In this document: piece by piece, positions 3,245 through 37,400 of the stretch
Layout of the letters: every line of letters starts with the position of its first letter
Numbering within the stretch: the stretch's first letter is position 1
Position numbers and translations under genes: made by a program
Notes under the pieces: model-generated
Seen by the model: only the letters and a program-made list of their open reading frames with translations
The model's database searches: none
What the model was told of the DNA's origin: nothing
NCBI GenBank assembly: GCA_964541365.1
Contig: CAZIPJ010000001.1
Coordinates: 1 to 57,294 of the forward strand
Reading direction: 5' to 3'
DNA: 57,294 nt
Origin: an uncultured Lachnospiraceae bacterium
GTDB taxonomy: Bacteria; Bacillota; Clostridia; Christensenellales; UBA1242

Positions 3245-3283
3245 ATGTTTATACCTCCGTCGGTTTCGTTTCTCTATGCCCCT

Positions 3284-3312: not shown

Positions 3313-3403
3313 TACCCTTTTTAAAAAAAGTTTGAAAGAATTTTAGGGATGAATCCCCTTCTATAACACACGGCATTTGCAATCGCTAAAAAGAGCCACA
3401 GGC

Positions 3404-9837: not shown

Positions 9838-9849
9838 TCTTTCTCCGTT

Positions 9850-10599: not shown

Positions 10600-10617
10600 A
10601 ATTCCCCCACAAAATTT

Positions 10618-11790
10618 TTATTTATTGGCAATAACTTCAAGTGCAGGCAAAGGTTTGCCTTCCATAAGCTTCAAACTTGCACCGCCACCAGTAGACAAGT
10701 GTCCGATTCTGTCCGCAAATCCACAAGTTTTGATTGCACTGACGCTATCTCCGCCGCCAACGATTGAATAAGCATCTGCTTTTGCAACCGCTTTTGCAAT
10801 TTTGGTTGTACCTTTTTTGAATCTGCCATCTTCATATTTGCCGACAGGTCCGTTCCAGATAATTTGTCTTGCGTTTGCAATTTCTTTTGTAAAGAGTTTT
10901 ATTGTTTCATTTCCAATGTCAAGCCCAATCATTTCGCCATCAAGAGTCTTCGTCTTAATTACTTTATCTTTGCTCTTGATTAAAGCAAGGTGGTCGACTG
11001 GAAGCAAAATCTTGATTCCTTTTGCCTTGGCAGTCTCCAAAATTTCTTGTGCGTCATCAACTTTGTCAAGAGACACGATTGACTTTCCCACCTTTCTTCC
11101 CTGCGCTTGAAGGAAGGTGTAAGCCATTCCACCGCCAATGATGATTGTGTCTGCTTTATCCATCACATTGTGAATAAGGCTAATCTTGTCATCAACCTTT
11201 GCCCCACCAAAGATGGCAACAAAAGGATGTTTTGGAGATTTTAAAGCTTCTTCAAAAATATTTATCTCCTTTTCAATCAAGAAACCAATTGCGTTTGGGA
11301 GTTTGACTGAAAGTCCATAAGTTGATGCGTGTTTTCTGTGGCAAACGCCAAATGCATCATTAACATATATGTCTGCAAGCTTAGAAAGTTCCTGCACAAC
11401 CTTTGGAGAATTTGCTTCTTCTCCTTCAAGAAATCTGACATTTTCAAGAAGCAAAATTTCACCATCTTTAAGTTTTTCAACTTCTCTTTGTGCATCAGGT
11501 CCAGCTGGTGCTCTTGAAAATTTAACCTTATTTGGAAAAACTTTCATCAAATAAACTGCGACAGGAAACAGGGAAAGATATTTATCATAACTGCATTTTG
11601 GTCTGCCAAGGTGAGAGCACAAAATCACTCTTGCTCCCTTGTCAGCCAAATACTTGATTGTTGGCACTTCGGCAGAGATTCTTGTGTCGTCCAAGATGTC
11701 ACCGTAATTGTCAAGTGGCACATTGAAATCACAACGCAAGAATACGCGTTTTCCTTTTATATCCTTTAAGTCCCTAATCGTCTTTTTCAT
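10618..11790 (-). CDS. pgk: Phosphoglycerate kinase
   Basis: 390 aa; RCDFNVPL, ILCSHLGRP, GGGDS...STGGGASL motifs; pgk-tpiA synteny. Confidence 0.96.
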   Translation of the reverse strand: MKKTIRDLKDIKGKRVFLRCDFNVPLDNYGDILDDTRISAEVPTIKYLADKGARVILCSHLGRPKCSYDKYLSLFPVAVYLMKVFPNKVKFSRAPAGPDAQREVEKLKDGEILLLENVRFLEGEEANSPKVVQELSKLADIYVNDAFGVCHRKHASTYGLSVKLPNAIGFLIEKEINIFEEALKSPKHPFVAIFGGAKVDDKISLIHNVMDKADTIIIGGGMAYTFLQAQGRKVGKSIVSLDKVDDAQEILETAKAKGIKILLPVDHLALIKSKDKVIKTKTLDGEMIGLDIGNETIKLFTKEIANARQIIWNGPVGKYEDGRFKKGTTKIAKAVAKADAYSIVGGGDSVSAIKTCGFADRIGHLSTGGGASLKLMEGKPLPALEVIANK

Positions 11791-11858
11791 TTTCGCAATC
11801 CTTTATCATAGTTTACAACATTTGCTTTGATATTTCAAAACATTTTAAGGAAAATGTT

Positions 11859-12791
11859 TTACTCCCCAGCCATAAACACATCTTTCAAAATACAAAGGCA
11901 CTGGTCGATGTCATCACAAGTGGCAAGTTTCAGTCTTACGCTTGCTGACATTGGCATATCTGATGCATACCACAAAAGGTGTTTTCTTATATAGAGTTTG
12001 AGCCAGTTTTCATCAAAATGTTCTCGAAGAATTGCAATATGCTTCTTGACAACTTCAAATTTGTCAACTTTTTCCGTATTTCCTTTAAGCTCTGCAAAAA
12101 GCCAAGGTCTGCCCATTGCACCGCGTCCAAGCATAACCCCGTCAACGCCGGTCTCTTTCATTTTTGAAAAACTATCCAAATCCACAACATCACCGTTGCC
12201 AATGACTGGAATAGAAAGTTTTGCCTTGACAGTTGCAATCGCTTCATAGTCAGCCTTTCCAGAATAGCCTTGCGCGACCGTCCTTGCGTGGAAAGTGACA
12301 AAGTCTGCACCGCTGTCTTGACACATTCTTGCAAACTCCAAAAAGTTTTCTGTGCTTTTGCCTTTCCTAAACTTAACGGAAACTGGTCTGTCCGTTGCAT
12401 TTTTAACTGCGGTAATGAGCTTGCTTGCAAGCGGAAGATTGTCCATAAGCGCTGAGCCTTCGCCGTTTTTGACAATTTTTGGTGCAGGACAACCCATATT
12501 TATATCAAATGAATCAAATTTTTCAAGCAATGGATTTTGAACAGCGCGCTTCAAAAATTCTTCTTCAAAACCAAAAATTTGAGCAATTTTGATTTTTTCT
12601 GCATCCGTTGTCAAGGTCATAAATTCTGTCTTTTTTGGATTGTGCTCCATTGCCCGTGCAGAGAGCATCTCCGTCACTGTTGCATCTGCGCCAAAAGAAG
12701 ATGCAAGGTTTCTAAACCCCACATCCGTCACCCCAGCCATAGGTGCAAGAATAAGCGGTTCTTCTGAAAAATCAAGTTGTCCTATTTTCAT
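11859..12791 (-). CDS. dus: tRNA-dihydrouridine synthase
   Basis: LAPMAGVTDVGFR, NMGCP...KNGEGSALM, HARTVAQGYSGKADY motifs. Confidence 0.9.
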   Translation of the reverse strand: MKIGQLDFSEEPLILAPMAGVTDVGFRNLASSFGADATVTEMLSARAMEHNPKKTEFMTLTTDAEKIKIAQIFGFEEEFLKRAVQNPLLEKFDSFDINMGCPAPKIVKNGEGSALMDNLPLASKLITAVKNATDRPVSVKFRKGKSTENFLEFARMCQDSGADFVTFHARTVAQGYSGKADYEAIATVKAKLSIPVIGNGDVVDLDSFSKMKETGVDGVMLGRGAMGRPWLFAELKGNTEKVDKFEVVKKHIAILREHFDENWLKLYIRKHLLWYASDMPMSASVRLKLATCDDIDQCLCILKDVFMAGE

Positions 12792-12887
12792 ACTGTTATC
12801 TTAGCACAAAATCAAGAAGAAAACAAAAGAAAAAGCAAGTTGTTTCAAACTCGCTTAATTCAACAAAAAATTCCACGTGTCAAGCAT

Positions 12888-13160
12888 TTAATTGATGCCA
12901 TACTTGAAATTATCAAACCCCTTAAAACCAACCACTTTCTTAGGTTTGCAGAAATAGTATCTCTTTGTCTGTGGATTAAGGAATTTTCTTGCCTTCTTCT
13001 CTTGTAAAGAGAATTTACCAAAATTTCTTATGCTGACTTCTTCACCTTTTGAGCAAATTTCCAAGATTGCAGTTCTCATTTCATCAATGACAGAAATACA
13101 CTTACTCTTTGACAAATTTGTTCTTTTTGACAATACTTCAACAAATTGAGCTTTATTCAT
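12888..13160 (-). CDS. hup: HU/IHF-family DNA-binding protein
   Basis: MNKAQFVEVLSKRTNLSKSKCISVIDEM...IRNFGKFSLQEKKARKFLNPQTK; start set at ATG 13160, 7 nt after the GGGGG SD. Confidence 0.85.
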   Translation of the reverse strand: MNKAQFVEVLSKRTNLSKSKCISVIDEMRTAILEICSKGEEVSIRNFGKFSLQEKKARKFLNPQTKRYYFCKPKKVVGFKGFDNFKYGIN

Positions 13161-13200
13161 AATCATACCCCCAAAAGAAATATTGCACAAAAACAAACTC

Positions 13201-14730
13201 TTAAACCACTTTTTTCTTCTTTTTTAAAATTGAGTACACAACCGGTGCACAGAAAACTGAATAAATAAGCACGCCAAGCACAATGGCAATCAAAATATTT
13301 ATCACTGTGTTGAAATAATCTTTTTGAATAAATGTGTAAACCGCAACGGCCATAACAGCACTTCCAAGAAGCATCAAAACAAGTTCAAGGAAGTTAAGTT
13401 GAATTTTGAAGACACCTTTAAGCTTTATAAGTGCCGCCACTGCAATAAACGCTGACATAAGAATATTTCCAAACACCAAAGCAAAGACATTGACTTGTGG
13501 CACTCCTGCAAGAATTACTGTGGCAAGTCCCTTGACCATTCCACCAATGGCAGTAATCACAACAATAAACTTGAAATTTCCGTTTGCCTGCAACAACATA
13601 ATAAAGTATTGCATCAGAGCAGTGAAAACGATTGAAAACGCACCAAAAAGCATAAGCTCAAACACAACTTCAAGCATCTGCCCAGACAAATCTGTGTAAA
13701 CAAATGGAAGCGCTTGCTTTGAAATTGCCACCAGTCCAAAGGTCGTAGGAAGCACCAACAAGAGCAAGAGCTTAATGCCCTTTTCCACAATATGTTTACT
13801 TTTGACACGTTTTGAAATCAGGTATGAGATGTTTGGCAAAAGAGTTGTTGCCACAGCCACTGAAATAATGAGTGGAAAATTTAAAAAAGCACCCGCAATT
13901 CCACTTTGAAGTCCAAACAGCTTTGTGGAAAGCCCACTTGAAAACCCCGCATCCACAAGTCTAGGGACAATCACAATCCCGTCAAAAGCGTTGACAAGTG
14001 GCAGAATACTTGCTGAAAGGGTCAAGAGAAAATTGACTTTGTCAAACTCGTGGTAAGCAAATTTAATACTTCTCAAATCTTGAAGTTTTGAAGTTTCGCC
14101 TTTTTTAAATAAAAAGAAAACATACAAAAAGATTATTGACACCACTTCACTAATGACAATGCCCAAAAACGCACCAAAAACACCACTGTTTATGCCGTGC
14201 TTTCCAAAATAAAACGCAAACAAAAGTCCAAATCCAAACTTAGCAACTTGTTCCAAAATCTGACTTATTGCAGTCGGAAACATATTCTCATATCCCTGAA
14301 AGAAGCCCCTGAAAACTGCAAGAATTGCCCCCAACGGCAAGAGTGCAACAAAAAGATAATAACCACTTCCAGATGTTATTCTTTGAAAGGAAGCAATGTA
14401 TTTGCCACAAAAGAAGAAAACGACACCAATCCCAAGTCCCACAAGCACAGAAATAAGCATCGCTCTTTTTAGATAGGTGGAGATTTTGGCTTGTTCTCCC
14501 CTTGCCCTTGCAGAGCTTATCAGTTTTGAAAGGCTGGATGTTACACCACCACAAGTAAGCACCAAAGTAAAGGAATACAGAGACATAATAAGCTGGAATA
14601 CACCAATCCCTTCGATTCCCAAAAGGTTTGTCAGTGGAAGCCTGAAAAATGCCCCAAGACACTTGCAAATCAGTCCACCAAGCACCAGAACCATTGCACT
14701 TACACCCAGCCTACGCTTCTTTTCTTCCAT
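13201..14730 (-). CDS. MOP-superfamily polysaccharide / lipid II flippase (MurJ/SpoVB-like), about 14 TM segments
   Basis: LICKCLGAFFRLPLTNLLGIEGIGVFQLIMSLYSF plus a polytopic profile typical of SpoVB/MurJ-type proteins; start set at MEEKKRR (ATG 14730). Confidence 0.8.
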   Translation of the reverse strand: MEEKKRRLGVSAMVLVLGGLICKCLGAFFRLPLTNLLGIEGIGVFQLIMSLYSFTLVLTCGGVTSSLSKLISSARARGEQAKISTYLKRAMLISVLVGLGIGVVFFFCGKYIASFQRITSGSGYYLFVALLPLGAILAVFRGFFQGYENMFPTAISQILEQVAKFGFGLLFAFYFGKHGINSGVFGAFLGIVISEVVSIIFLYVFFLFKKGETSKLQDLRSIKFAYHEFDKVNFLLTLSASILPLVNAFDGIVIVPRLVDAGFSSGLSTKLFGLQSGIAGAFLNFPLIISVAVATTLLPNISYLISKRVKSKHIVEKGIKLLLLLVLPTTFGLVAISKQALPFVYTDLSGQMLEVVFELMLFGAFSIVFTALMQYFIMLLQANGNFKFIVVITAIGGMVKGLATVILAGVPQVNVFALVFGNILMSAFIAVAALIKLKGVFKIQLNFLELVLMLLGSAVMAVAVYTFIQKDYFNTVINILIAIVLGVLIYSVFCAPVVYSILKKKKKVV

Positions 14731-14826
14731 AACCACCCCACAAAAACCCAATAATATGAAATAGAGTGCCGCAAACAAAGCGCAAATATGCAAGCAAAAT
14801 TTTTTTAAAAAGGGTATTTACAAATG

Positions 14827-14855
14827 CAAAGTTTCGTGCTATAATAGTGCCAACT
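14827..14855 (+). promoter_or_regulatory. Promoter module copy 2 (TTTACA-17-TATAAT, TG-extended)
   Basis: TTTTTTAAAAAGGGTATTTACAAATGCAAAGTTTCGTGCTATAATAG, near-identical to the minus-strand module at 3284-3335. Confidence 0.55.
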
Positions 14856-14881
14856 AGACGACGAAAAGGAGAAGGACAATA

Positions 14882-15505
14882 ATGATTGGCGCTATAAAAT
14901 CAATACAATCAATTCTTGAAGAAAATGATTTGATAATTGGTTCCCGCAAAGAAGATTCCTCTTATATCAGTGAGCCAGCCGGTGGTGGGGACTCATATCC
15001 TTACAGAATTATACAAGATGGAACTGATGACTATTTTGTATATGACGAAACACTCAACTGGGATTTAAAAGCATTAACAAGTTATTTGTCTAATGTAAGA
15101 AATTATAAGAGCTTGGTAAACGAACTTGAAGCATATAAAGACTGTAAAAATAAAGCAACAAGAGATGAGGCTCAGACATCATTGGATGGCGAATGGAAAA
15201 CAATGATTGATCAACTTGCAACCGTCGTTCCATATGTAGTATGTGAAGGCGGGATTGCAGCAATTCCAAACTTGGACTATCTCAAAGAAGTAATGGCATC
15301 AAAGAGTCTTACTGATGCAAGAAGAAGTTTCTCTTCTATTATGAGGGCATGCATTACACACAACTACAAAGAAGCAGAGAGAATCAATGCAACTTTGGAT
15401 GGAAATAAGAAAATTAAATGTTCAGAAAAGTGGAGAGAAGTTACAAAAAGAATTATAGCCGATGAGAATAGAGAAAAAAATAATGGCGGAAAAAATGGTA
15501 TATAA
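14882..15505 (+). CDS. Hypothetical 207-aa cytoplasmic protein; C-terminus ...ENREKNNGGKNGI
   Basis: AAGGAGAAGG SD; own promoter and terminator; no signal peptide; no family recognised. Confidence 0.7.
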   Translation: MIGAIKSIQSILEENDLIIGSRKEDSSYISEPAGGGDSYPYRIIQDGTDDYFVYDETLNWDLKALTSYLSNVRNYKSLVNELEAYKDCKNKATRDEAQTSLDGEWKTMIDQLATVVPYVVCEGGIAAIPNLDYLKEVMASKSLTDARRSFSSIMRACITHNYKEAERINATLDGNKKIKCSEKWREVTKRIIADENREKNNGGKNGI

Positions 15506-18120: not shown

Positions 18121-18906
18121 TTACAGGCTCTGACATTTTTTAAAAAGTTCAACAAATTCTTCAAGAGAAAAACTTTCTGCTCTTCTTGCAAGCGTTTCTT
18201 CTCCCAAAACGGCTTTAAGTTTTGTCTTGTCATAAAATGAGCTGAGATTGTTGAGAAGCGTTTTTCTTCGCATTGCAAAACAAGCTTTGACAAACTTTGA
18301 AAATTTTTGTTTGTCAATCTCTTTAAATTTGTTTCTGTCAATTTCAATGTGTAAAATTGCAGAATCCACATTTGGAGCGGGATAAAACATTTGACGCTTG
18401 ACAATTCTGGTGATTTTTGCACTTCCATAAAATGCCGTCATAACTGTTGGGATTCCGTAATCTTTGTCTCCGACTTTGGAACAGATTTTTTCTGCAACTT
18501 CTTTCTGCACCATAATCGTCAAACTCTGCACTTTCTCTGATTCTTCCAAAAGTTTGAAAAGGATTGGAGTGGTGATGTAATAAGGAAGATTTGCAACCAC
18601 CTTAAACTCGCCCGCAAACATACCTTCGATTTTTTTCAAATCATATTTCATAAAGTCGTCAAAAACAAAAACAACATTAGGCAGAGCAAGAGACAAAAGA
18701 TGCTCTGACAAATCCTTGTCAATCTCAAATGACACAACTTTTTTTGCCGCTTGGCTCAAAACTTCTGTCAGACTTCCAGCACCCGCACCAATTTCCAGCA
18801 CTTCGCTCGCCACATCAACTTCGGCGTCACCGCAAATCGCTTTAAGCAAATTTGTGTCACTCAAAAAGTTTTGACCATACTTTTTCTTAAAAACAAAATC
18901 TTTCAT
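18121..18906 (-). CDS. rsmA: 16S rRNA (adenine1518/1519-N6) dimethyltransferase
   Basis: KKKYGQNFL, VLEIGAGAGSLT, VANLPYYITTPI motifs. Confidence 0.95.
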   Translation of the reverse strand: MKDFVFKKKYGQNFLSDTNLLKAICGDAEVDVASEVLEIGAGAGSLTEVLSQAAKKVVSFEIDKDLSEHLLSLALPNVVFVFDDFMKYDLKKIEGMFAGEFKVVANLPYYITTPILFKLLEESEKVQSLTIMVQKEVAEKICSKVGDKDYGIPTVMTAFYGSAKITRIVKRQMFYPAPNVDSAILHIEIDRNKFKEIDKQKFSKFVKACFAMRRKTLLNNLSSFYDKTKLKAVLGEETLARRAESFSLEEFVELFKKCQSL

Positions 18907-19664
18907 AAATTAAACAACCTTTTTGCATTTTCTGTGGTAAAGCGTGCAACTTCTTCAATTGAAACGCCTTTAAGCCTTGCGATTTCGTCTGCAACATAAA
19001 CAACATTCTTTGGCTCGTTTCTTTGCCCACGAAATGGCACTGGCGTCAGATATGGGCAATCAGTTTCCAGCAAAATTCTCTCCTTTGGAAGCATTTTCAC
19101 AACATCAGGCAAGCTTTTTGCATTTTTAAAAGTCACAACTCCGCCGATTGAAAACGAAAAGCCAAGTTCAAACAAGATTTTTGCACTTTCCACGCTTCCG
19201 CCAAAGCAGTGAATTAAGCTTGGCATCTTGGGTGGATTTTTCTTTAATACTTCAATTGTGTCACCCATCGCATCCCTTGAATGAACAACAATAGGCTTTC
19301 CCAATTTGTTGGCAAGTTCAATTTGTTTGATAAAATACTTCTTCTGAGTCTCTTTATCAAAACCTTCCCTATGATAGTCAAGCCCAATCTCTCCAATCGC
19401 CACAACTTTGTCGTGTCTTGCAAGATTCTCAATTTCTTCAAGTGATGATGCTTCAATTTCGTTTGTGTTTTCTGGATGAAAGCCGACATTTGCATAAACA
19501 CAGCCAGTTTTCTCAGCCAAAGCGACCGCTTCCCTTGACGATGAAAGATTAAAGGCAGAACAAACAAGCCTTTTCACCCCAGCGACTTTCGCTCTTTCAA
19601 TCACGGCATCCACATCATCAAACCATTCGTCAGTGATGTGACCGTGTACATCAATCAATTCCAT
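18903..19664 (-). CDS. tatD: TatD-family metal-dependent hydrolase/DNase
   Basis: LIDVHGHI, AIGEIGLDY, IVVHSRDA, LLETDCPYL motifs; ATGA overlap with rsmA. Confidence 0.92.
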   Translation of the reverse strand: MELIDVHGHITDEWFDDVDAVIERAKVAGVKRLVCSAFNLSSSREAVALAEKTGCVYANVGFHPENTNEIEASSLEEIENLARHDKVVAIGEIGLDYHREGFDKETQKKYFIKQIELANKLGKPIVVHSRDAMGDTIEVLKKNPPKMPSLIHCFGGSVESAKILFELGFSFSIGGVVTFKNAKSLPDVVKMLPKERILLETDCPYLTPVPFRGQRNEPKNVVYVADEIARLKGVSIEEVARFTTENAKRLFNL

Positions 19665-21329: not shown

Positions 21330-21920
21330 ATGAATATTTTTTGGACAATAATGATGTTTGGGGGCGTGCTTGTGCTGCTAATCACAAACCCATCAGCTGT
21401 GCTTTCAGAGATGATTGGAGCTTCTGCCAGTGCTTTGAAACTGTGCATAGAACTTTGTGCAATTTATGCAGTTTGGCTTGGAATTATGGAACTTGTTGAA
21501 GCAAGCGGGCTTGCCGAAAAACTTGCAAAACTGCTTCGCCCACTAATTAGAAAAATTTTCAAAGTTGAAGACAAAGAAACACAAAAAATAATTGCACTCA
21601 ATGTCTCCGCAAATATGCTTGGCATAGGCAACGCTGCAACGCCAATGGGAATCCGTGCAATGCAAGCTCTTGACGACAAATCCGGAAAGGCAACCTTTGC
21701 AATAATTATGCTTATCGTGGTCAACGCAACATCAATCCAACTGCTCCCAACCACCGTCATCGGACTAAGGCAAAGTGCAGGCTCTGCAAACCCCGCTGAC
21801 ATAATCTTGCCAACTCTTCTTGTCACCTTTTGCACAACTGCACTTGGGATTGTGCTTGTCCACTTGATTGACAAATTCAAAAGAAAATTGGACAAGCCTT
21901 CCACAAGGAGTGCAAGATGA
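21330..21920 (+). CDS. spmA: Nucleoside-recognition-domain membrane protein, SpmA-like
   Basis: 196 aa, polytopic; MNIFWTIMMFGGVLV...GNAATPMGIRAM pattern of spore maturation protein A. No obvious SD. Confidence 0.8.
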   Translation: MNIFWTIMMFGGVLVLLITNPSAVLSEMIGASASALKLCIELCAIYAVWLGIMELVEASGLAEKLAKLLRPLIRKIFKVEDKETQKIIALNVSANMLGIGNAATPMGIRAMQALDDKSGKATFAIIMLIVVNATSIQLLPTTVIGLRQSAGSANPADIILPTLLVTFCTTALGIVLVHLIDKFKRKLDKPSTRSAR

Positions 21921-22423
21921 GTGTATATATATTACCCGCCTTATTTTTGCTTCTTTTCGTCTATTGCATCTATAAACGCATAAACACCTATGACCACTTC
22001 GTTAAAGGCGCAAAAGGGGCAATAAAACTTGTTGTGGACATTTTCCCATTCATCGCATCCATTCTGATTGCCGTTGCACTTTTGAGAGTGAGCGGTATAA
22101 CAGTTCTCTTGGGCAAACTTCTCTCTCCGTTTTTCAATCTGCTTGGCATCCCAACAGAGCTTTGCGAGCTTGTACTTCTTCGCCCCTTTACTGGCAGTGG
22201 CAGTTATGGAATTTTGGAAAATATTTTCACCACCTACGGTGCAGACAGTTACATCGCCCGCTGTGCCTGCGTAATTATGGGATGCAGCGAAACAATCTTC
22301 TATGTTGCCACCGTTTATATCTCACAAACCAAAGTGAAAAAACTTTTGTATGCAATCCCCGTTGCACTGTTTTGTTCACTTGTCGGGACAACCCTTGCCT
22401 GCCTAGTTTGCAAAGTGATGTAG
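21917..22423 (+). CDS. spmB: Nucleoside-recognition-domain membrane protein, SpmB-like
   Basis: 168 aa; ATGA overlap with spmA; FVKGAKGAIKLVVDIFPFIASILIAV pattern. Confidence 0.8.
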   Translation: MSVYILPALFLLLFVYCIYKRINTYDHFVKGAKGAIKLVVDIFPFIASILIAVALLRVSGITVLLGKLLSPFFNLLGIPTELCELVLLRPFTGSGSYGILENIFTTYGADSYIARCACVIMGCSETIFYVATVYISQTKVKKLLYAIPVALFCSLVGTTLACLVCKVM

Positions 22424-22542
22424 GAACTCGTTCCATTCTGTGCGTGACTTTCTTTATTTCACACATTTTTGAATAACAGAAAGCAAAAAATATACACAAA
22501 ACCATTATTTTCAGATTCTTTTCATTTTTTCCAAAGAAGATA

Positions 22543-22569
22543 TTGACAACTCCCCCCCCGTGTTATACT
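22543..22569 (+). promoter_or_regulatory. Cassette promoter A: TTGACA-ACT-C8-GTGT-TATACT (15-nt spacer)
   Basis: TTGACA 22543-22548, C8 22552-22559, TATACT 22564-22569; AGGGGGA SD and ATG follow. Confidence 0.6.
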
Positions 22570-22591
22570 GAGAAAAATTAAGGGGGAATTT

Positions 22592-23623
22592 ATGAAAGCA
22601 AAAGTGAAAAATATTGATATTGAGACTTTAACTGATGCAGAACAAGAGAATATAGACTCATTAGGGTCAGAATGTAAAGATGCTCTTGAAGAAAGAAATT
22701 TTGGCAAATACAAGAAATTGCAAAAAGCACTTTCAAGGTTCAAAACTGAGAGCGGCGACATTGTGTATGCGTATGACTTTTATGAACAATTACATTTTAT
22801 GATTTTGCTTGTCGACACCTATTATCGACGAGACAATGAAAAGCCTTTCAGCGAAGGTAAATTAGTTAGCCTAGTAAAAAACGCACTAAAATATGCACCT
22901 GATGAATTAGATGTAAATTTCTCAAATTGTTTTTGGATGGTTTTCCACCCAAACTGGCTCATACTCTCTGAAACAAGATTTAAAATTATGGATGAATGTT
23001 TGAAACATTATCCAAAGACTAATGAATATGAGTGGTCCAAAATTCTCGCAAATGCTGCATCTTGTGAATTTAAATACAGCCAAAGCAATCAAGAAATTAT
23101 AAATGAGCTTGTTGAGCGTGGTGCAAACATTAATATTGCATTGTTGGAAGCACTCAAAAAGGGTAACACTCACTCAATAATGGTATTGAATTCTCTTGGA
23201 GCAAAGATTAAGCCGGAACTTATTTCTGATGACATGAAGTTGAGTAAGGCAGATTTTGAATCAAAACTTAAAGAAGCAAAGGAAAAGTTTAATGAAGAGT
23301 TTTTAAGCCTAATAAGAGACGATGAGACATATAATCCTTACACTATTGCTAGGTACATTAATCTTGGTGCAGATGTAAACTATTGCTCGGAAAAACACCA
23401 CCGCAAACTTGTACCACTGTTTGAAGCTATAAGGGGAGAAAAAGAAGCAATTTTTGACCTTTTACTTAAATCGGGTGCAAATCCAAACATAAAAGTTGGT
23501 TCTATCTCTGCTCTACAAAAAACAATCGACTTTAAAAATATAAGAATGGCGAAGAAGTTGCTTAAAAATGGTGCAGACCCAACTGATGTTGTTATAGATG
23601 ACTCAAAAGTAGAAAAAAATTAA
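22592..23623 (+). CDS. Cassette gene A: 343-aa cytoplasmic protein with C-terminal ankyrin repeats, zero-frame stop after an A7 run
   Basis: GADVNYCSEKHHRKLVPLFEAIRGEKEAIFDLLLKSGANPNIKV...AKKLLKNGADP are ankyrin-type repeats. No signal peptide. Confidence 0.85.
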   Translation: MKAKVKNIDIETLTDAEQENIDSLGSECKDALEERNFGKYKKLQKALSRFKTESGDIVYAYDFYEQLHFMILLVDTYYRRDNEKPFSEGKLVSLVKNALKYAPDELDVNFSNCFWMVFHPNWLILSETRFKIMDECLKHYPKTNEYEWSKILANAASCEFKYSQSNQEIINELVERGANINIALLEALKKGNTHSIMVLNSLGAKIKPELISDDMKLSKADFESKLKEAKEKFNEEFLSLIRDDETYNPYTIARYINLGADVNYCSEKHHRKLVPLFEAIRGEKEAIFDLLLKSGANPNIKVGSISALQKTIDFKNIRMAKKLLKNGADPTDVVIDDSKVEKN

Positions 23624-23856
23624 AGAAAACACTTCAATATGCCAGAAATGCCAATAGCAACATCACTGATAATAAAACGGACGAATCAACTGCCGCCAGA
23701 AAAGAAAGTGAAGTAGTAAAGATTACAACTCCAAAATCAACAAATACAGCTGGCACACAGAAAGAATCCCAAATTACAAGTTCCCCAGAAAATAAAGAAT
23801 CAAATACTGAACATTCTGCTAGAAACAAAGTCAATCCAGACGGCGAAGGAAAATAA
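23602..23856 (+). other. Open -1-frame continuation of gene A encoding a low-complexity linker plus the family tail ...ARNKVNPDGEGK
   Basis: 85 stop-free codons with no ATG. The frame opens 7 codons before the gene A stop and ends in the same motif and terminator as genes B and C. Confidence 0.7.
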
Positions 23857-23857
23857 A

Positions 23858-23888
23858 GAAAAAGACTGAAAAATTCAGTCTTTTTTTA
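23858..23888 (+). terminator. Terminator module copy 2
   Basis: AGACTGA-AAAAT-TCAGTCT followed by T7. Confidence 0.8.
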
Positions 23889-23936
23889 TTAAAAAGCTAG
23901 CATTTTCAAGTTTTTTCACTTTTTTTGAGAAAGATA

Positions 23937-23964
23937 TTGACAACTCCCCCCCCCGTGTTATACT
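23937..23964 (+). promoter_or_regulatory. Cassette promoter B: TTGACA-ACT-C9-GTGT-TATACT (16-nt spacer)
   Basis: C9 at 23946-23954. Confidence 0.6.
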
Positions 23965-23986
23965 GAGAAAAATTAAGGGGGAAAAT

Positions 23987-24715
23987 ATGAAAATCACTGA
24001 TGAATTATTTACATTAACTTTCGAAGACATCAAGCGTTGTGCAATCTGCGATGACGCTGACGAACATCTTGATAAACATATGGTGGAAACTTTTTGGGTA
24101 TATGCAGAGGGATTTGCAAAAGATAGCATATATAAGTCACTCAGCAATGAAGAAAAAGCTTTTGGGACACTTTGTGCGGGACTTTTGGCTATGTGTTATC
24201 GTACTCAGCGATACGGTGGCTCTGATTCGTGCAATTTATTCAACGAATCAAGTCCACTATTATACAAAGATGGTGGGTTTGTGTCAATATCAAGTCTCGC
24301 TCCATTAGAGCGCGATATAGCAGTAAGAATGATGCTAATTTCCATTTGTAAGATTATGCAAGACGCTCTTGTATGGGAAGAAAGTAAAAATGAAAAAGGT
24401 TCTTATACTGCTGTCGGTATTTCGCTCTCTGAAATTCCTTATGATACTAAAAGATTTTTAAGACCCGAAAGTCTTAGCTTCATATCACACGCAGTTTTTG
24501 GACAAGAGATAGACTTTAAAACATATGACCCTAAGGCTGGAACTTATAAATTTAAAGAGCCTTCATCTATCTCCGTTAAAGAAACTATGGAGTCACTCAG
24601 CCGAAAAATAGAATCTGGAATAAAAGAGTACAAAGCATATATGAGTGCAGAAAAGTCAAATAAAACTGAAAAACAAACAAAAACAAAAACCGACCCAAAT
24701 GGTGACGGAAAATAA
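23987..24715 (+). CDS. Cassette gene B: hypothetical 242-aa cytoplasmic protein ending ...KTKTDPNGDGK
   Basis: AGGGGGA SD; no signal peptide; no family recognised. Confidence 0.8.
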   Translation: MKITDELFTLTFEDIKRCAICDDADEHLDKHMVETFWVYAEGFAKDSIYKSLSNEEKAFGTLCAGLLAMCYRTQRYGGSDSCNLFNESSPLLYKDGGFVSISSLAPLERDIAVRMMLISICKIMQDALVWEESKNEKGSYTAVGISLSEIPYDTKRFLRPESLSFISHAVFGQEIDFKTYDPKAGTYKFKEPSSISVKETMESLSRKIESGIKEYKAYMSAEKSNKTEKQTKTKTDPNGDGK

Positions 24716-24716
24716 A

Positions 24717-24746
24717 GAAAAAGACTGAAAAACTCAGTCTTTTTTA
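24717..24746 (+). terminator. Terminator module copy 3
   Basis: AGACTGA-AAAAC-TCAGTCT followed by T6. Confidence 0.8.
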
Positions 24747-24796
24747 TTAAAAAGCTAGCATTTTCATATTGTTTTCACTTTTTTTTAAGAAAGATA

Positions 24797-24824
24797 TTGA
24801 CAACTCCCCCCCCCGTGTTACAAT
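24797..24824 (+). promoter_or_regulatory. Cassette promoter C: TTGACA-ACT-C9-GTGT-TACAAT (16-nt spacer)
   Basis: C9 at 24806-24814. Confidence 0.6.
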
Positions 24825-24846
24825 GAGAAAAATAAGGAGAATCAAT

Positions 24847-25353
24847 ATGGGAATAAAAAGAAAATCAAAAAAAGATGATGTTTTTGAAAGTCTTAGCACT
24901 CTCTATGAAGACGCTAAAAATTCACATAAGAAAGTCGAGCAAGTGGTACAATGGATTCGTTCTGTTGAAGCACAATGTCACACTGTAAGTATTAGTGTAG
25001 AAGAGATAACCCGCTGTCTTGCACAGATTGATGAAAAAATTGATGGGCTCAACTTTGAAAAAGCACTCTGCAATAAAAATATTGAGTTAATCAAAGAAAT
25101 GAAATCAAGTAGACGCGGAACAGCGTGCTTAAAAAAATTCGAAAATTCTTTAAAAGAAAACAAACAGGTTGGATTTGAATCACTTTCAGTTTGTGTGCGT
25201 GATGACGCTTTTGCTGCACAAATTGAACTTAATATGTCGCTTAAAGGACTTCTCAATCGCACCAAGCGAGATTTAACAGAAAAAAGTGGAACATCTACCG
25301 CAACCCAATCTGAAACGCCTACTAAAACCAACCCAAATGGCGATGGGAAATAA
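24847..25353 (+). CDS. Cassette gene C: hypothetical 168-aa, predicted helical protein ending ...TPTKTNPNGDGK
   Basis: AAGGAGA SD before ATG 24847. The track's start at 24769 would translate the promoter itself. Confidence 0.8.
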   Translation: MGIKRKSKKDDVFESLSTLYEDAKNSHKKVEQVVQWIRSVEAQCHTVSISVEEITRCLAQIDEKIDGLNFEKALCNKNIELIKEMKSSRRGTACLKKFENSLKENKQVGFESLSVCVRDDAFAAQIELNMSLKGLLNRTKRDLTEKSGTSTATQSETPTKTNPNGDGK

Positions 25354-25354
25354 A

Positions 25355-25385
25355 TAAAAAGACTGAAAATCTCAGTCTTTTTTTA
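25355..25385. terminator. Terminator module copy 4 (convergent, shared with the methyltransferase gene)
   Basis: AGACTGA-AAATC-TCAGTCT followed by a T run. The minus-strand stop TGA (25374-25372) lies in the stem. Confidence 0.8.
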
Positions 25386-26106
25386 TTTGTATATTTTTAG
25401 TGTGCAAGCTTTCAAGATAGTTGCCGTCGGCGTCATTTCTAATAAGATTTGGCAAGACTTTACACCCTGCCTTTCCGCCTTTCACCGCTTTAAGCACAGC
25501 CAAATTGATTTTCCCTTTTCCATTTTCGGTGAAGAAAAGCTCTTTCACTGTCAGTTTTTCGTTTTGCAAAACAGAAATCAGCTCAGCAATCCTTTCAGCA
25601 CCATACACACAATAAAAACTTCCGCCGTTTTTAAGCATCACACTTGCAGTCTTTGCCAAGGTCTCAATTGGCAAGCAGACATCTTCTTTTGCAATCTTTT
25701 TCACTTCGCTTTGAGCAAAATCGGTCTGCTTGTAAAATGGTGGATTCGAGAAAACAACATCCACGCTTGCGGGTTTTACATATTGTGCAAAATTTTTAAC
25801 ATCGTCCTGCACCAATTTGATTTTCTCTTCCAAATTGTTCAGTCTCAAATTTTTCTCGCAAAGCTGAGCCATAGGTTCTTGCAATTCAAATGCAACAATA
25901 TTTTTTAAGCCGGTCTTTGCTTGCACAAGGATTGAAATCACCCCACAACCTGCACCAATTTCAACAGCAAGTGCATCTTTTTTTGCTTTGACAAAATTTG
26001 CCAAGATGACACTGTCAGATGTGAATGTGTAGAGCTCTTTGTCCTGAATTATTTTCAAGCCATTGCACTGCAAATCTTCCAGTCTTTCACTCTCTTTCAG
26101 TTTCAT
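25372..26106 (-). CDS. SAM-dependent N6-adenine methyltransferase, YabB / tRNA1(Val) m6A37-like
   Basis: VEIGAGCGVISI SAM-binding motif and FSNPPFY catalytic motif; position after yaaT as in B. subtilis yabB. Confidence 0.8.
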   Translation of the reverse strand: MKLKESERLEDLQCNGLKIIQDKELYTFTSDSVILANFVKAKKDALAVEIGAGCGVISILVQAKTGLKNIVAFELQEPMAQLCEKNLRLNNLEEKIKLVQDDVKNFAQYVKPASVDVVFSNPPFYKQTDFAQSEVKKIAKEDVCLPIETLAKTASVMLKNGGSFYCVYGAERIAELISVLQNEKLTVKELFFTENGKGKINLAVLKAVKGGKAGCKVLPNLIRNDADGNYLESLHTKNIQIKKD

Positions 26107-31436: not shown

Positions 31437-34400
31437 TTATCTATTTGCAAGTTTTTCTCTACGCTTCTTGCGTCTTACTGAAATAATGATGAACAGCACA
31501 ATGAGCAAGAGAAGCAATCCAATAATTCCGATGATTAAATAAATGTACCAACCAGCACCCTGTTTACCTTGCAAGATGACTGCGTTTTGTGAAAGAACTC
31601 CAAACAAACCGCCATAGCTTACTGTCTCGTAAGTGAATGCGTTGTAGATGCCTGAAACTCTGTGTCCATTGAAATTAAAGAGACCATTGAATGGGAATTC
31701 TTCTGTTCCGATAGGTGTCCAGAATCTGTCTGAAAGTTCTAAATCCTTTTTCAAGATATAACTTGCGCTTCGATATTGCTTACCGTTTCCATAAGTTGCC
31801 CCGCTGTTGCAGAGCCTCATCATAAGCACCAATTCATCCACTGACGAAATCTCAAAAGGTTCGTCATCTGTGCCAGAGCCAGCAAAGCCAGAAGCACTAA
31901 CAGCATAATCTTCCCAAAGAAGTCTGTAATACTCAATTTCAATTTGAACAGTTCCAAGAATTCCTTTTGCTTCTATGAAATCCTTTGTCAAAATAAGGTT
32001 TCCTTTGTCGGTGAAAACAAGTTCATCCTTTGTCAAAGTCAAATCATAATTTTTTACAGTAATAGAAGAGATTGCATATCTTTGGTTTGTAACAAGTCCA
32101 ATTTCAATGCTTTGTGCATCAGCAGAAGCAGAAATTAAGTCTGCTCTTCTTCCCTTGAAAGTTGTGTAACCAGCAGCATTTACAAAGTTGTTGTCCATTG
32201 CATTTGTAGCTTTATCTGCATCAGCAAAGCGTCTGTTTACATAAATTGAAATTATTTCATTCTTGAACTCTGGCAAAATTCTCATCAAGTCGCCTTGTGG
32301 GCAGTTTTCAATGGCAAGGTCAAAATATGACAATCCGTTTTCATAATGAGAGAATTTGATATCGTCCCTGTTCCAGATAATTGCAAAGCCATAGTCAACA
32401 GCAACTGCAAATGTTACTTTGTCTCCAACTTTGACATCAATTCTATCAAGAGCTGGGATAAATTGTCCAGCACTGTAATTTCCAAGTCTATAAGCCCTGC
32501 TTGTGCCATCAGTTGATGTTGCAACAACATTCAAAATCTGTCCAAAAGTATAGTCATAAAGGTTTCCACTTTCGTCAGCGAAACTCATTCGGAATGTTCG
32601 TCCTTGAAGGTTCAAAATCAGTGTTGTTTTAGCAAGCGCCCTAAGGTCTTCCCAATCCTTTGTCCAACAAGTTTGACCTGTTGTGACATTGTTCCATCTG
32701 ACAAACTCATAGTCTTGCTCGTTGAACTCTGCAATAAGATTGAAGTTCTTTGTCGTGTCAACATAGTTTTGTTCGTTCAATGCTCTTGCCTGTGGGTCAG
32801 ATGCTTCTTGCTCAACCTTGAAACCACCTTCTCCGCCATACACAACAACATCAACAAGCGCAAAGTAAACAACTTGCACATCGCACTCAACAATCTTGTC
32901 AAGTTCGTTTGTTGACCAAGGCACTTCTTCTGAGAAAGTCACCACATCTTCAAGCCAATTTCCATTTATGTCTTTTTGCTTGATGACGAATTTATAGAAT
33001 TTGTAACCTTGAAGTTTTGGCGCTTTGATGTAAATATTTGTGTTGAAAGCAACTTCAATATAAAGTTTTGATGTTGGATAATACCAAGAATTTGTGTAGT
33101 CCACACCAGAAACCATATCTTGTGCAGTTGCATTGATTGAGACATTTGGAACAACTTCAAAATGAATTCTTGTTTTGTAATAAGACCAGTAGAGATAGAG
33201 CGTAATTTCCATTTCCCCAGTCTGAGAATTGAAGTAAGCATTTTCAGTAAGTTCGTATTTTGAAGTTAAGCTGTTGAGCTGATAACCGCTTTCATTCCAA
33301 GCTTGAAGCACTGTGCCGTCACTGTCGATGTACATCACGCCAGCGCCATTTTCACTTGTGAAGAAACCGTCAAAGTGATAGTTTTGTCTGCTCATCAAGA
33401 ATGCAAGTTTTCCATCGACAAACGCAAGCTTGTCTTGTGAAGTAAGGATTTGAATGTTTGCTTGGTTTATTTCTGAAAGTTCCAATCGAGAACCAAACTC
33501 AACATTTTTAACCACTGCCAACACATTTCCTTCTTCAACAAGCTTAACTGTGTAAGTTGTTGGATGAACAAGGATGTAAATTTCATTTTCAAACAGATAG
33601 TCTTTTACAATGAAGCTAACTTTCGCTGTGAAACCATCAAGTTTGATTGAAAGTTGTTCAACTTGAATTGAATCTCTGTCTATGATGTCGTTTTCGCAAA
33701 CAAGTTCAACATTCTTTTCGTAAATATAATAGCCAACTCTGATATAAGCAACTACTTCAAAAGTGCTGTCTGTGTAAGCTGAAACAGTGATTGAAGAATA
33801 GTCTCTACCAGAAGCAAACACCTTGTTTGCATTTTGTGCGTCAACCACATAGTTTATTGCACCAGCGTTAGTGTCAGTATCGGATACCTTGAAGCCAATT
33901 TTGATGTCATTTAAGTTTGGTCTAAACAAAACATCAATGTCCACTTCCGTTCCGCCAATTGCACCCATTATTGTATAGATTGCATAGTTTTCGCCTTTCT
34001 CGATTTGATAAACAGTCACAAGCATTGAGTTTGAAACCACATCAAAGAATTTGTAACCAACCTTTTTGGTGTTTATCTTGATGTAAACATCTTCACCTGT
34101 GTATCCAACAATCGTGAAAGCTCTATCGTCGACAAGTTTTCCGTCTACAAAATCTTCTGAGCTGTAACGAGTTCTTGTCCCTTCAATATAGCCATATTGA
34201 TTTACGCCCAAACCGTTTTCACTTTGCAGTTCAACTCCACCAACATCAATGTTAGGCTCTCTCACGCCTTCAATGTCAATTTCAGTGTTGATATTGATGT
34301 TGAAACTGTAAGCCTTGACAATGACATACAAAACAAAGTTAACAACATCTTCATCAAGTTCAAGACTTGAAATTGTAAACTGAACAGTGCGTTCTCCGCT

Positions 34401-37400
34401 TTCAGCAGTTTCAAGAATTACAAAATTGTTTCCGTTGTAATATCCAATACCATAGTAACGATACCCCGTTGGAACAACATAAGAAATTGTTTTGCTTGCA
34501 CCGTAATAAAGTTCAAGTGAATAGATATCATTTTCGGTGTCAGCATCCAAATATCTTTCTCCAAATCCCGCAATTTCTTGATAGATAGTTCTTTCAAGTG
34601 CAGGTTCGCCATATTCGGAGTTGAGAGTGTAATTGTTGTAAGTACCAAATCTAATTGTAAACTTCATTGATGAGAAGATTGCATAGATTGTTTCATTGTC
34701 TACAAGCTCATAGTCCAAAATCTCATCAGTGCTGAATACATTTTCTCCATCTCTGCTCCAACCTGCAAAACTGTAAATTGAAAGCATCTGGTAAGAAAGT
34801 GTAAGTTTTGTACCAAAATCTGCAACAATGCTTGAAAGTGAATTTTCTTGAATATATGCTTTGTTTTCTGGTTCGTCAACAAGTTGCTTCAATTCGTTGT
34901 AAGAAAGAGTTTCAACTTTCAAAGTAAATTGAGATATCTTGCTTGTGAACAAGATTTGTCCATCTTCTTCAATATCTGAAACGACAATCTTGTAATAGCC
35001 TTCCTGTGCGTACAAACCTTCTGTTGCAAGAGCACATTGAATGATATACTGAGAATCAGTTTCAAATTGAGCAAATTCATAACCGTGCTTGTATTTTAGA
35101 TACATTTCAAGTGTTTCGCCAGCCACTCTTCTCATCGTTGGCAATTTATCAAAATCTCTGTAAGTATTGCCATCAACAACAAGAGCTTCCACTTTGTCGT
35201 TTTCGCTGAACTTGACAACTATGTCATTGATAACTTCAAGTGTGCTAAGTTCAATTGAAACATCTCTCAAAACATTTGAAATTTCAATTGTCAACACATC
35301 GCTGACAACAGATGTTTTGACAACAACATCAGCGTCTTCGCAAATTACTTCTTCAAGCATCTGGAAGCCGTAAGAAGCAGAAACAACAAGTTTCAGGGCT
35401 TTTCCAGTTTGAAGTCTGACTGCGTTTGATTCAACAGAAAGAGCTTGTTCTGTTCCATCTGTTATGTCGTAAGCTAAAATTTGTCCAATATTATCGCCCA
35501 AAACTGAAACCGTGTTTGTTTTTGCGGTTGCAGAAATTTTGCAAACAAGATTTTCTGCTGGCATCTTAAAGCTTACAATGGCAACACCGCTTGAAACTGT
35601 CACCTTGAAGTTTTTATTCCAAGACTCAACATTTTCCAATGTATAGCCAGCATCTGCGGTAACATTGAATTCAATCTCTGTTTCAAAGTCAACACCATTG
35701 AGAGTGTAAACATTTCCATTCTTCACAAAGTTTGCAGAAGATGAAATTGAAACATTTTCAACAGTGATTGAAATATCAAAACTTGCGATTTGCCATCTCG
35801 CAGTAAGAGTGTGGTTTTGAGTAGTTGAAAGCACGCTCTGTCCATTGATTTTGTTTCCACTTGCGTCAAACCAACCAACAAAGTTGTAACCTGTACGAAG
35901 TGGAGTTTCAATCCAGTCAGAACTTTCTGCATAATTTTGTTTGAAAGGAACAGTAATCTTTTTGTTCTCAGTCTTTCCGTCAGCAAAGTCAAGAGTAACC
36001 ACCACACCAACAGCTTCAAAATTTGCAGTCAATGTAAGTTCTGTCTGACCTTGTGAAACCAAAGCTGAGAGCTTTGTATTCTCAAAATCGGAAGCAACAG
36101 TTGTTCCGTTTGAAATTGAAACAAGTTCAAAACCGTCTCTATGCAAACCAATGTTTGCAAGAGAGAATTGTTGAAGTTCAAGATAAGTTGCTCTCCAAGA
36201 ATACTTGTTGTCAGAGCCTTTCACAAATTTTGTTGATGAAATTGTTGCGTCAGACGCATCTGACAAATCAAATATAACATTCACTTTTTCAGCTTCAAAT
36301 CTTGCAACAAAGTTGTATGTTGTTGAAAGGTTTGCAACAGTCAACAGAGCTCCGTCAGCACTAGTTGAAACTGAAACTCCACTTGCTGTACCGTTGTCAT
36401 AGTGGATGCTTCCTGTCGCATTGTAGAAGCCATAATATGTGCAATGTTCATTTGCAATCGCTTTAAGAGTAAGTTTTGTGCCGTAGTCAAATCTTCCTGT
36501 GAAGCTTGCAGATGAAGTAATTTCAATTTCTTCTCCATTCCCTGCCACAAGCAAAACTTTTCCAAAGTCGGCATCAGCGCCGGTCTCATCAGCGACTTTA
36601 ATGCTCACTTGATATTTGTTTATATCCCAGTTTGCATCAAAAGTAAATTCAATGTCGTCATTCTTGTAATAAGTTCCAAACAAGTCTGTTTCATTGTTGA
36701 GAAGGGCTTTCAAAAGTTCAACTGTGTCAGCGTTGTTTCCAACATCAATCTTAAACTCTTGGTTTTCATAACTGTAATCTTGTCCAAGTGTCTTTCCAAG
36801 TTTTTTAAGAACAGAAGTAAGGAAAGTGTGTTGCATTGAGCCTTCTGCCACATTTTTGAATGACAATGTCCATTTTTCAAACACAAAACCTGTTCTTCCA
36901 GTAAGATTTGTTGGGAAGTTTCTAAGAGATGTTGTATTTGCATTTGCTGAGTTTGCAGTCAGATATGAATCTGACATAAATGGAAATGCAAGTGCTGAAA
37001 GCTGTGGCAAGTTGCTATTTTCAACATTTGACTTAACATTGCTTCCATTTGCATTGTAGTTGAAATTCAATTTCACTGTAACGGCTTCAATCACACCATA
37101 TTCCCAAGAAGAGAGCGCGTAATTTCCTGCATCAGCCCCGCCCAAGCGGAAGTTGATTGTGATTGCTTGCCCAATAAATTCTGTTGCATAAGTTGCACTT
37201 TCAATTTTCACATCATCATAGGCGTGAATTGTGGTTGTTCCGCCAAGCCCGTCAGAAACAACTTTGTCTTTGTCAACTGTGCCGACAAGCAAGATTCTTT
37301 CTTCGCCTTCTTCGTCAAGCAAAGCCACATCTTTTGTTCCGTCATACTTCTTTGTGAAGATGTCTTCAATTTCTTCCTTGACACCTTCAAGAGTAAGCGT

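Follow-up and report, generated by a model that had tools for sequence, protein, structure and literature searches.

The three genes and their common C-terminal tag

The window analyzed here is a stretch of 57,294 nucleotides (nt) from an uncultured Lachnospiraceae bacterium (GenBank assembly GCA_964541365.1, contig CAZIPJ010000001.1, positions 1 to 57,294 of the forward strand). It contains three neighboring genes, called A, B and C below, that encode unrelated proteins ending in the same short peptide, the tag. Our working definition of the tag is [KR]-x(1-2)-[ND]-P-[ND]-G-x-G-K-COOH behind a variable polar linker of 5-80 residues. The three genes form a 2.97-kb array (22427-25396) between two convergent core genes. 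The features of the array, with protein lengths in amino acids (aa), are the following:

21917-22423 (+): spmB-like core gene, left flank of the array
22427-25396 (+): accessory insertion with the three tagged genes, between the convergent spmB-like and TrmN6-like core genes
22543-22569 (+): gene A promoter; TTGACA, ACT-C8-GTGT spacer of 15 nt, TATACT; poly-C at 22552-22559; repeat family D3
22592-23623 (+): gene A body, 343 aa, C-terminal ankyrin repeats; frame 1, stop at 23621-23623, just past the A7 tract
23602-23856 (+): gene A tail in frame 0, 84 open codons with no ATG; polar linker with much Thr, Ser, Lys, Glu and Asn
23613-23619 (+): A7 homopolymer, by direct reading the sole possible junction of the ankyrin and tail frames
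23859-23885 (+): intrinsic terminator after gene A (AAAAAGACTGAAAAATTCAGTCTTTTT); repeat family D2
23937-23964 (+): gene B promoter; TTGACA, 16-nt spacer with C9, TG-extended TATACT
23987-24715 (+): gene B, 242-aa orphan with 6 Cys, ends KTKTDPNGDGK; tag at 24692-24712
24718-24744 (+): intrinsic terminator after gene B, from the repeat and terminator scans
24797-24824 (+): gene C promoter; TTGACA, 16-nt spacer with C9, TG-extended TACAAT
24847-25353 (+): gene C, 168-aa orphan with 5 Cys, ends PTKTNPNGDGK; tag at 25330-25350
25356-25382 (+): intrinsic, bidirectional-looking terminator after gene C, common to the convergent methyltransferase gene
25372-26106 (-): TrmN6-like tRNA methyltransferase gene, right flank of the array

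The tags, TAA stop codons included, lie at 23833-23856 in the tail of gene A, at 24692-24715 in gene B and at 25330-25353 in gene C. In the window there are three matches to the degenerate DNA pattern RAYCCNRAYGGNGANGGNAARTAA, against none in 100 dinucleotide-preserving shuffles. The three peptides and the codons quoted for them in the initial annotation of this DNA all read as given. It had also described a polar linker followed by the tag on unrelated proteins without signal peptides, and this description holds. Proteins A, B and C can be aligned with one another only over their last 10-30 residues, both by BLASTP and by profile comparison, and none of them has a signal peptide or a hydrophobic segment (the largest 19-residue Kyte-Doolittle mean is < 1.6).

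One expression unit, promoter / tag-terminator, is present in three copies as genes A, B and C. Each unit consists, in order, of a promoter, a short leader with a strong ribosome-binding site, the body of the gene, the polar tail with the tag, TAA and the intrinsic terminator common to the array units, AAAAAGACTGAAAAnTCAGTCTTTTT. The promoters are near-consensus sigma-A promoters with TTGACA, a spacer made of ACT, poly-C and GTGT, and a TG-extended TATACT or TACAAT; their core occurs three times in the window against 0.01 expected. The promoter scan made no call for gene A because its spacer has only 15 nt. At the DNA level the units are joined by two repeats: a direct repeat of 92 nt (67-75% identity), which spans the tail, the stop codon and the terminator, and a second repeat that covers the promoter and the ribosome-binding site. 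Rfam and tRNA scans of the window returned no match, and no transfer-messenger RNA (tmRNA) gene was found in it.

The array is an accessory insertion. Two related contigs, L081 (GCA_948943755.1) and L085, keep the gene order of the window at about 74-76% nt identity (blastn), and the alignment with both stops at window position 22426 and resumes at 25397. In place of the array, their core genes lie 51 nt apart with one terminator between them.

The start of gene C is most likely the ATG at 24847, behind its ribosome-binding site, rather than the TTG at 24769 that begins the mechanically called open reading frame (ORF); the latter is disfavored because that ORF would read through gene C's own promoter. 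Gene A has Pfam matches to Ank (2.5e-08) and Ank_2 (5.6e-06) and a PADLOC match to the candidate family PDC-M72A (4.1e-08). Genes B and C have no significant match in Pfam, NCBIfam, PHROG, PADLOC or PDB, the PADLOC match of gene C being marginal. Gene B matches only itself among 5.8 billion protein clusters, and genes A, B and C are each a one-member cluster among about 15 billion proteins. The AlphaFold2 model of gene B has a predicted local distance difference test score (pLDDT) of 51.5, too poor for a fold search. The gene C protein is probably helical.

Recurrence of the tag in other genomes

The tags of the window lie inside a DNA-level repeat, and the three window sequences therefore cannot separate selection on the peptide from DNA homology. 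The initial annotation had argued from the synonymous codons of these three copies that the peptide is conserved and not just a nucleotide repeat. That argument is weaker than it was stated; the conclusion itself stands, because the question is settled by other genomes.

A strict form of the pattern was scanned against one genome per prokaryotic species (596 Gb). It gave 32 matches, roughly the number expected by chance, and most of them were short spurious frames. Five of the 32 end ORFs of 149-413 codons (148-409 aa from the first ATG), and these real gene ends are confined to three low-GC Clostridia metagenome-assembled genomes (MAGs): 'Clostridiales bacterium MAG-R015' (two), 'uncultured bacterium extra-ERR2136562.13' (two) and 'Christensenella sp. 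MGBC129349' (one). A terminator-like hairpin and T-run directly follow the tag in four of these five. A metagenome scan with the same strict pattern added one further convincing case, on a contig (L057) that is syntenic with window 8734-15505 at 52-85% protein identity. Position -2, which the pattern leaves unconstrained, is nevertheless Lys in 4 of the 6 non-window cases and in 7 of the 9 pattern-derived cases when the window is included; position -1 is a small residue in all six non-window pattern cases. In the viral contigs of IMG/VR, scans with three patterns gave no long ORF that carries the tag. A phage origin of the tagged genes was considered and rejected on this result, and on PHROG matches that reach only the solenoid body of one tagged protein (L011p, described below) and the ankyrin repeats of gene A.

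Evidence for the peptide that does not depend on the search pattern comes from a family of tagged proteins, called the Y family, which comprises a 148-aa protein of contig L022 and five database relatives that are 54-97% identical. All five relatives end in T/S-N-P-N-G-x-G-K, where x is E, N, N, T and D. The tag is kept in five of six further relatives, the exception being the gene at L015:4145-4591. In the DNA of these tags the Asn and Gly codons change synonymously, x is the sole amino-acid change, and the linker that precedes the tag diverges. A remote Y paralogue (L076, E = 2.9e-08) has an entirely different linker and a TAG stop and still ends in K-I-D-P-N-G-E-G-K. When 1.84 billion representatives were searched exhaustively with a profile, the family came to only four clusters, this paralogue among them. 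The Y-family tail is predicted to be disordered (pLDDT 36-38 over the last 20 residues); the whole model, with a pLDDT of 56.2, is too poor for a fold search.

The contig that carries one Y orthologue, L074, has three consecutive tagged genes in one operon, with the ends KTTNPNGTGK, TKANPNGEGK and NKTNPNGSGK. Behind the first of these tags comes the ribosome-binding site of the next gene, not a terminator. Because the two additional tagged genes were found through the orthologue and not through the motif, they are an independent confirmation of it.

In total, 16 distinct tagged proteins from about nine unrelated families were collected. In an alignment of 15 tails, conservation is confined to the last nine residues, among which P, G, G and K never vary. 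Across genomes and within the Y family, the Gly codons of the tag vary among GGC, GGA, GGT and GGG and its Asn codons between AAT and AAC, while the residues are fixed. The initial annotation would have been contradicted by a tag that occurs nowhere else and has no synonymous-only pattern of substitution; what we observe is a tag that recurs in relatives with synonymous changes. The promoters and terminators of the six non-window cases differ from those of the window.

The MAG-R015 terminator at L026 690-740 (AAAAAAGACTGAAATTTTCAGTCTTTTTT) is an exception to this last statement, as it is nearly identical to that of the window array (compared with 23857-23885); close kinship or the transfer of a tail-plus-terminator segment may account for it.

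Two further observations concern the surroundings of the Y family. An untagged gene, X (172-188 aa, no family match), always precedes the Y-family genes and is divergent from sepF. It accompanies Y-family arrays only, has no homologue in the window, and may be a functional partner of the Y-family array alone. Near the Y locus there is also a small conserved protein that ends in ...EKTAGIGKN, that is, K-T-x-G-x-G-K plus one residue, and is missed by the strict motif. Their positions are:

L015 3594-4124, L022 3974-4540, L071 9465-9983, L074 9446-9976: gene X
L022 978-1250, L071 6466-6738, L074 5071-5853: small protein ending in ...EKTAGIGKN

Carriers of the tag and their genomic settings

The tag is modular. 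When all tagged proteins were compared with one another, only the tails aligned, by BLASTP as well as by hhalign. Among the carriers is L011p, a beta-solenoid protein of the YdcK-like type (Hexapep; PHROG 5070, 2.6e-51). None of its 77 homologues has the tag, and other, varied C-terminal domains are found there, from which it follows that the tag is an add-on acquired in this clade. Another carrier is a 409-aa protein, L019p, encoded at L019 3443-4672 directly downstream of tRNA-Ala (3274-3350). It has two Rx4H motifs, RNAFSH at residue 113 and RNSLMH at residue 287, as in HEPN RNases; the sole family match that supports this relationship is marginal (PADLOC RTasHEPN, E = 0.027). A defense system was also considered and rejected, the PADLOC evidence being insufficient: it consists only of the gene A match to PDC-M72A and of the marginal matches of gene C and L019p.

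The tagged genes are accessory genes for soluble orphan proteins, mostly have their own promoter, and occur as singletons or short arrays wedged between housekeeping genes. In the promoters of most singletons, TTGACA or TTTACA is separated by 16-17 nt from a TG-extended TATAAT-like box. The settings are:

Window: between spmB and the tRNA methyltransferase gene
L015, L022, L071, L074: between sepF and tuf
L011: between plsX and ackA
L026: beside efp
L019: beside tRNA-Ala
L057: beside murJ
L076: beside rpoC

The Cys content of the tagged proteins is 1.46%, compared with 1.75% for housekeeping proteins and 0.34% for a giant signal-peptide-bearing surface protein of the window. This giant ORF (31437-49718, - strand, 6093 aa) has a signal-like N-terminus and a C-terminal hydrophobic anchor with a basic tail, and to judge by these sequence features it presumably encodes a surface protein. 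It has weak matches to Listeria-Bacteroides repeats and is kept in L081 and L085 (6083 aa).

Some untagged orphans of these genomes have endings worth recording. At window 5345-6076 and 6078-6806 (both + strand) there are tandem paralogous orphan genes with a 300-nt repeat that is 83% identical. The pair has one consensus promoter and one terminator in common, and both proteins end in ...TEKKTNTTPSSNKVADKDKGGK, a polar end with a looser Gly-Lys pattern reminiscent of the tag. The orphan that occupies the slot divergent from murJ is a different one in each relative. The protein in this slot at L057 8-559 (- strand) is properly tagged; the window protein (14882-15505, + strand) ends in ...EKNNGGKNGI and its L081 orthologue (18454-19080, - strand) in ...KKGGNGKGD, and both of these ends are rich in Gly, Asn and Lys and lack the tag.

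Homopolymer tracts and the tail of gene A

Gene A reaches its tag only through a change of frame. Its tag, NKVNPDGEGK, ends at 23853 and is followed by the stop at 23854-23856; as assembled, it is out of frame with the ankyrin ORF. Extending the A7 tract to A8 yields an in-frame ankyrin fusion of 421 aa that ends in NPDGEGK. Programmed -1 ribosomal frameshifting was considered as another way of joining the two frames, since A_AAA_AAT resembles a slippery site, and was rejected for want of a downstream stimulatory structure: the 102 nt downstream of the A7 fold like shuffled sequences (z = -0.06).

The spacers between the -35 and -10 boxes contain poly-C tracts, C8 at 22552-22559 (gene A), C9 at 23946-23954 (gene B) and C9 at 24806-24814 (gene C). 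The tract of gene A is C9 in a Logan contig (L069, SRR9335148) of the same strain that is otherwise identical over 4.5 kb; this C9 lies in the last 30 nt of the contig and is physically linked to upstream sequence specific to the first copy. The difference between C8 and C9 could reflect phase variation or a homopolymer error of assembly or sequencing, as the comparison is between two assemblies. Together, the A7 and poly-C tracts look like the behavior of a contingency locus, with assembly error as a serious alternative. The argS gene of the same contig (window 3404-5292, - strand) bears on this. It is split into two overlapping ORFs, the catalytic part at 3928-5292 and the DALR domain at 3404-4042, with a frameshift near 3930-3960, away from any homopolymer. 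The break suggests indel errors in the window contig or a pseudogene, and because argS is also frameshifted, an assembly indel is plausible for gene A as well.

Interpretation of the tag

The combination of a variable domain, a variable polar linker and a sharply conserved nonapeptide with a free carboxylate leads us to read the tag as a docking peptide. The data show that the motif exists, is conserved as a peptide, is modular and restricted to one clade, and sits on accessory genes; the receptor and the effect of recruitment are inferred. We give slightly less than an even chance to the proposal that the tag is a docking motif, specific to this lineage, through which unrelated clients are recruited to one common receptor. 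The sequence [ND]-P-[ND]-G comes close to an ideal type I turn of the Asx-Pro kind. In the proposed mechanism, this turn and the x-Gly-Lys that follows it, with its free carboxylate, would be held out on the polar linker and bound by a single conserved receptor of this family of uncultured gut Clostridia, and fast-evolving accessory proteins would thereby be brought to one common machine or site. The clients would be the ankyrin-repeat protein, the beta-solenoid protein, the protein with two HEPN-like motifs and several helical orphans. We favor clients that stay in the cytoplasm, because their Cys content is close to that of housekeeping proteins and unlike that of the giant exported protein, and because no genes for transport were found next to them. 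Docking would in that case work as it does for encapsulin cargo-loading peptides, for the SspB tail that tethers to ClpX, and for the clamp-binding and SSB-tail motifs.

Several observations weigh against this reading. Among the examined loci, no neighbor gene common to the tagged genes was found. The Y-family orthologue at L015:4145-4591 has the degenerate tail SSGYGGKR, which means that the tag can be lost and is dispensable at least sometimes. By our own rough estimate, five gene ends with the strict pattern in 596 Gb are close to the chance number; with the raw count near chance, the case rests on the clustering of the tags in few related genomes, on their conservation in orthologues and on the L074 operon. 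The Cys argument has a single exported protein as its comparator. Finally, homopolymer tracts like those of the promoters and of gene A would be no less expected for products that are exported or exposed at the surface than for cytoplasmic products.

A broader version of the docking proposal seems to us possible and rather doubtful: the tagged proteins would be the clients of a previously unknown protein-targeting pathway, restricted to one family of uncultured gut Clostridia, with a dedicated receptor for K-x-N-P-N-G-x-G-K-COOH, rapid turnover of clients and homopolymer-switched units. The receptor might be a non-Sec export machine, a cytoplasmic compartment or an AAA+ or defense hub. The set of clients would turn over by the insertion of self-contained gene units, and in the genome of the window these would be switched individually by the C8/C9 tracts of the promoters and by the A7/A8 tract of the coding sequence.

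The tag could instead be a C-terminal export or secretion signal by which a non-Sec route moves diverse effector-like proteins out of the cell or onto its surface. We consider this unlikely. The carriers are effector-like (ankyrin repeats, beta-solenoid) and are fast-evolving singleton orphans within accessory insertions. The C8/C9 spacer tract differs between two assemblies of the same strain and the tail of gene A depends on A7, and exposed products are where homopolymer switches are typically seen. A polar tail with a short signal at its very end is also how substrates of type IV and type VII secretion are built. Set against this, there is no secretion-system gene in the window or in any fetched locus, the Cys content is cytoplasm-like and four times that of the exported giant protein, and the tails have no YxxxD/E, WXG/LXG, RTX or positively charged RxR-type signal. 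To our knowledge, there is no C-terminal secretion signal of this kind in monoderm Firmicutes.

A degron, read by a protease or an adaptor and keeping strongly transcribed accessory proteins at low or conditional levels, is distinctly improbable. In its favor, ssrA-type and other C-terminal degrons likewise sit at the extreme C-terminus behind an unstructured linker, turnover on top of near-consensus promoters would make levels tunable, and L019p, with its two HEPN-like Rx4H motifs, could be toxic. The bacterial C-terminal degrons that we know of have non-polar ends such as LAA, whereas the tag is polar and ends in Lys. We also see no link of the tag to Clp, Lon or FtsH here, and that about nine unrelated families should each have gained and kept a degron is hard to explain.

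We regard a chemical role of the tag as very improbable, whether as a truncated metal loop of the DxDxDG/EF-hand type or as a site of modification or ligation at the Asn-Gly or Asp-Gly bond or the terminal Lys. Positions 1, 3 and 5 always have oxygen-bearing side chains (N/D, N/D and D/E/N/T/S), position 6 is Gly, [ND]-G is invariant, and the sole PDB match of the tag profile, a weak one, is to a segment that we take to be an EF-hand loop (IKADPDGDG in 6tp5, E = 3.3). Position 1 is however mostly Asn and several tags are free of acidic residues, which is incompatible with a useful calcium affinity; loop positions 8-12, with their bidentate Glu, do not exist; and no ligase, transglutaminase or sortase-like gene lies nearby. 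The notion that the peptide has no function and is a by-product of a 3' DNA cassette of tail and terminator (spread by duplication or gene conversion) or of the termination context, to which the 92-nt repeat with its terminator, the repeated promoters, the run of AAA-TAA-A into the terminator A-tract and the looser Gly-Lys endings common among orphans of these genomes had lent some color, is largely refuted and retains hardly any credibility, since across genomes the peptide is kept where terminators differ or are absent, synonymous sites vary while the adjacent linker diverges, and the remote paralogue with its different linker and TAG stop retains the tag.

Terminal labels common to unrelated proteins have led to sortases, exosortases, encapsulins, type IX secretion and peroxisomal import. 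If the tag is a docking peptide, a nine-residue bait would be a handle on its receptor in poorly studied gut anaerobes related to MAGs labeled Christensenella, and the regular expression of the tag would identify the clients in all genomes of this clade. Should the tracts indeed switch expression, the window would be a case of contingency-locus-style control in Firmicutes, for which we know of few examples.

Comparison with known systems

The initial annotation had found the tag to match no tag known to it, and our searches agree: nothing that explains the tag was found in Pfam, NCBIfam, PHROG, PADLOC, PDB or the literature. A 44-column tail profile, gene B and L019p had no match in PDB by sequence or profile. 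Searched against a database of 5.8 billion proteins, the tail profile scored 17-23 bits (E = 12 to 900); synthetic profiles, made sharper, performed worse. No occurrence of the tag heptapeptides was found in the literature, and keyword searches gave nothing relevant; a query with the hexapeptide or 'NPNG motif' returned the NPNG motif, in part in the context of two-partner secretion (TPS) or a TPS adhesin, together with one incidental PDGDGK string. The NPNG(I) motif of the TPS domain has the tetrapeptide N-P-N-G in common with the tag and differs in that it is not a terminal tag: it lies inside the N-terminal beta-helix domain, of about 250 residues, of Gram-negative TpsA proteins.

Several known signals share the C-terminal position of the tag and little else. 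LPXTG and PEP-CTERM sorting signals are also C-terminal and found on diverse proteins, but they come with a transmembrane helix, a basic tail and a signal peptide, all of which are absent here; without a transmembrane helix or a signal peptide the tag is not of the sortase or exosortase type. As it is encoded in frame by the gene, is polar and ends in G-K, it is not ssrA, which is added by tmRNA and has a non-polar end. Type IV and type VII secretion substrates resemble the tagged proteins in the C-terminal position of their signals and in their effector-like carriers, although type IV signals are conserved much less sharply than the tag. With regard to type VII, no WXG/LXG protein (Pfam, NCBIfam), no YxxxD/E in the tails and no FtsK/EssC gene in the loci was found; with regard to RTX proteins and type I secretion, whose substrates have tandem GGxGxD nonapeptide repeats and a C-terminal signal of some 60 residues, there are no repeats here and each protein has one copy of the motif.

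The EF-hand, DxDxDG and dockerin loops are nearer in sequence, as D/N-x-D/N-G-D/E/N/S/T-G-K fits loop positions 1-7 and the dockerin consensus is D-V-N-G-D-G-K-V-N. When a 12-column profile of the tag was compared with PDB, the one weak match (E = 3.3) was to IKADPDGDG in the transmembrane prolyl 4-hydroxylase 6tp5, which we take to be an EF-hand calcium loop. Tag positions 3, 5 and 6 agree with a calcium loop; at position 1, where such a loop has Asp, 11 of the 16 tags have Asn, and NPNGNGK, NPNGTGK and NPNGSGK have no acidic residue. The chain of the tag ends at loop position 7, so that loop positions 8-12, with the Glu or Asp of position 12, are missing, as are a flanking helix and a second repeat (in dockerins a duplicated 22-residue segment), and the tagged proteins have no EF-hand or dockerin matches in Pfam. 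The end of the chain at position 7, the mostly Asn position 1 and the acid-free tags make a calcium site unlikely.

The closest parallels in design are docking peptides. The cargo-loading peptides of family 1 encapsulins are likewise peptides of about 10 residues at the extreme C-terminus, are attached by a flexible linker to unrelated cargos and dock in one pocket of the receptor. Their consensus is hydrophobic, of the Gly-Ser-Leu type, whereas the tag is polar. Encapsulin cargo genes normally adjoin the shell gene, and the known cargoes are mostly enzymes and not orphans. No gene for an HK97-fold shell was found among the window genes (Pfam) or in the gene tables of the fetched loci. Lacking a hydrophobic Gly-Ser-Leu core, and with no shell gene found at these loci, the tag does not qualify as a classical cargo peptide of encapsulins. 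The ClpX-binding tail of SspB, the C-terminal tail of SSB and the beta-clamp-binding motif combine a domain, a disordered linker and a short terminal peptide in the same way; they serve either one hub with many unrelated clients or an adaptor tethered to one machine, and the SspB tail likewise ends in Lys. They have no sequence similarity to the tag and are widespread in bacteria, while the tag is found in a narrow clade and on accessory orphans. The general logic of a terminal address peptide is a known one; the sequence of the tag, the clade that carries it and its putative receptor are new.

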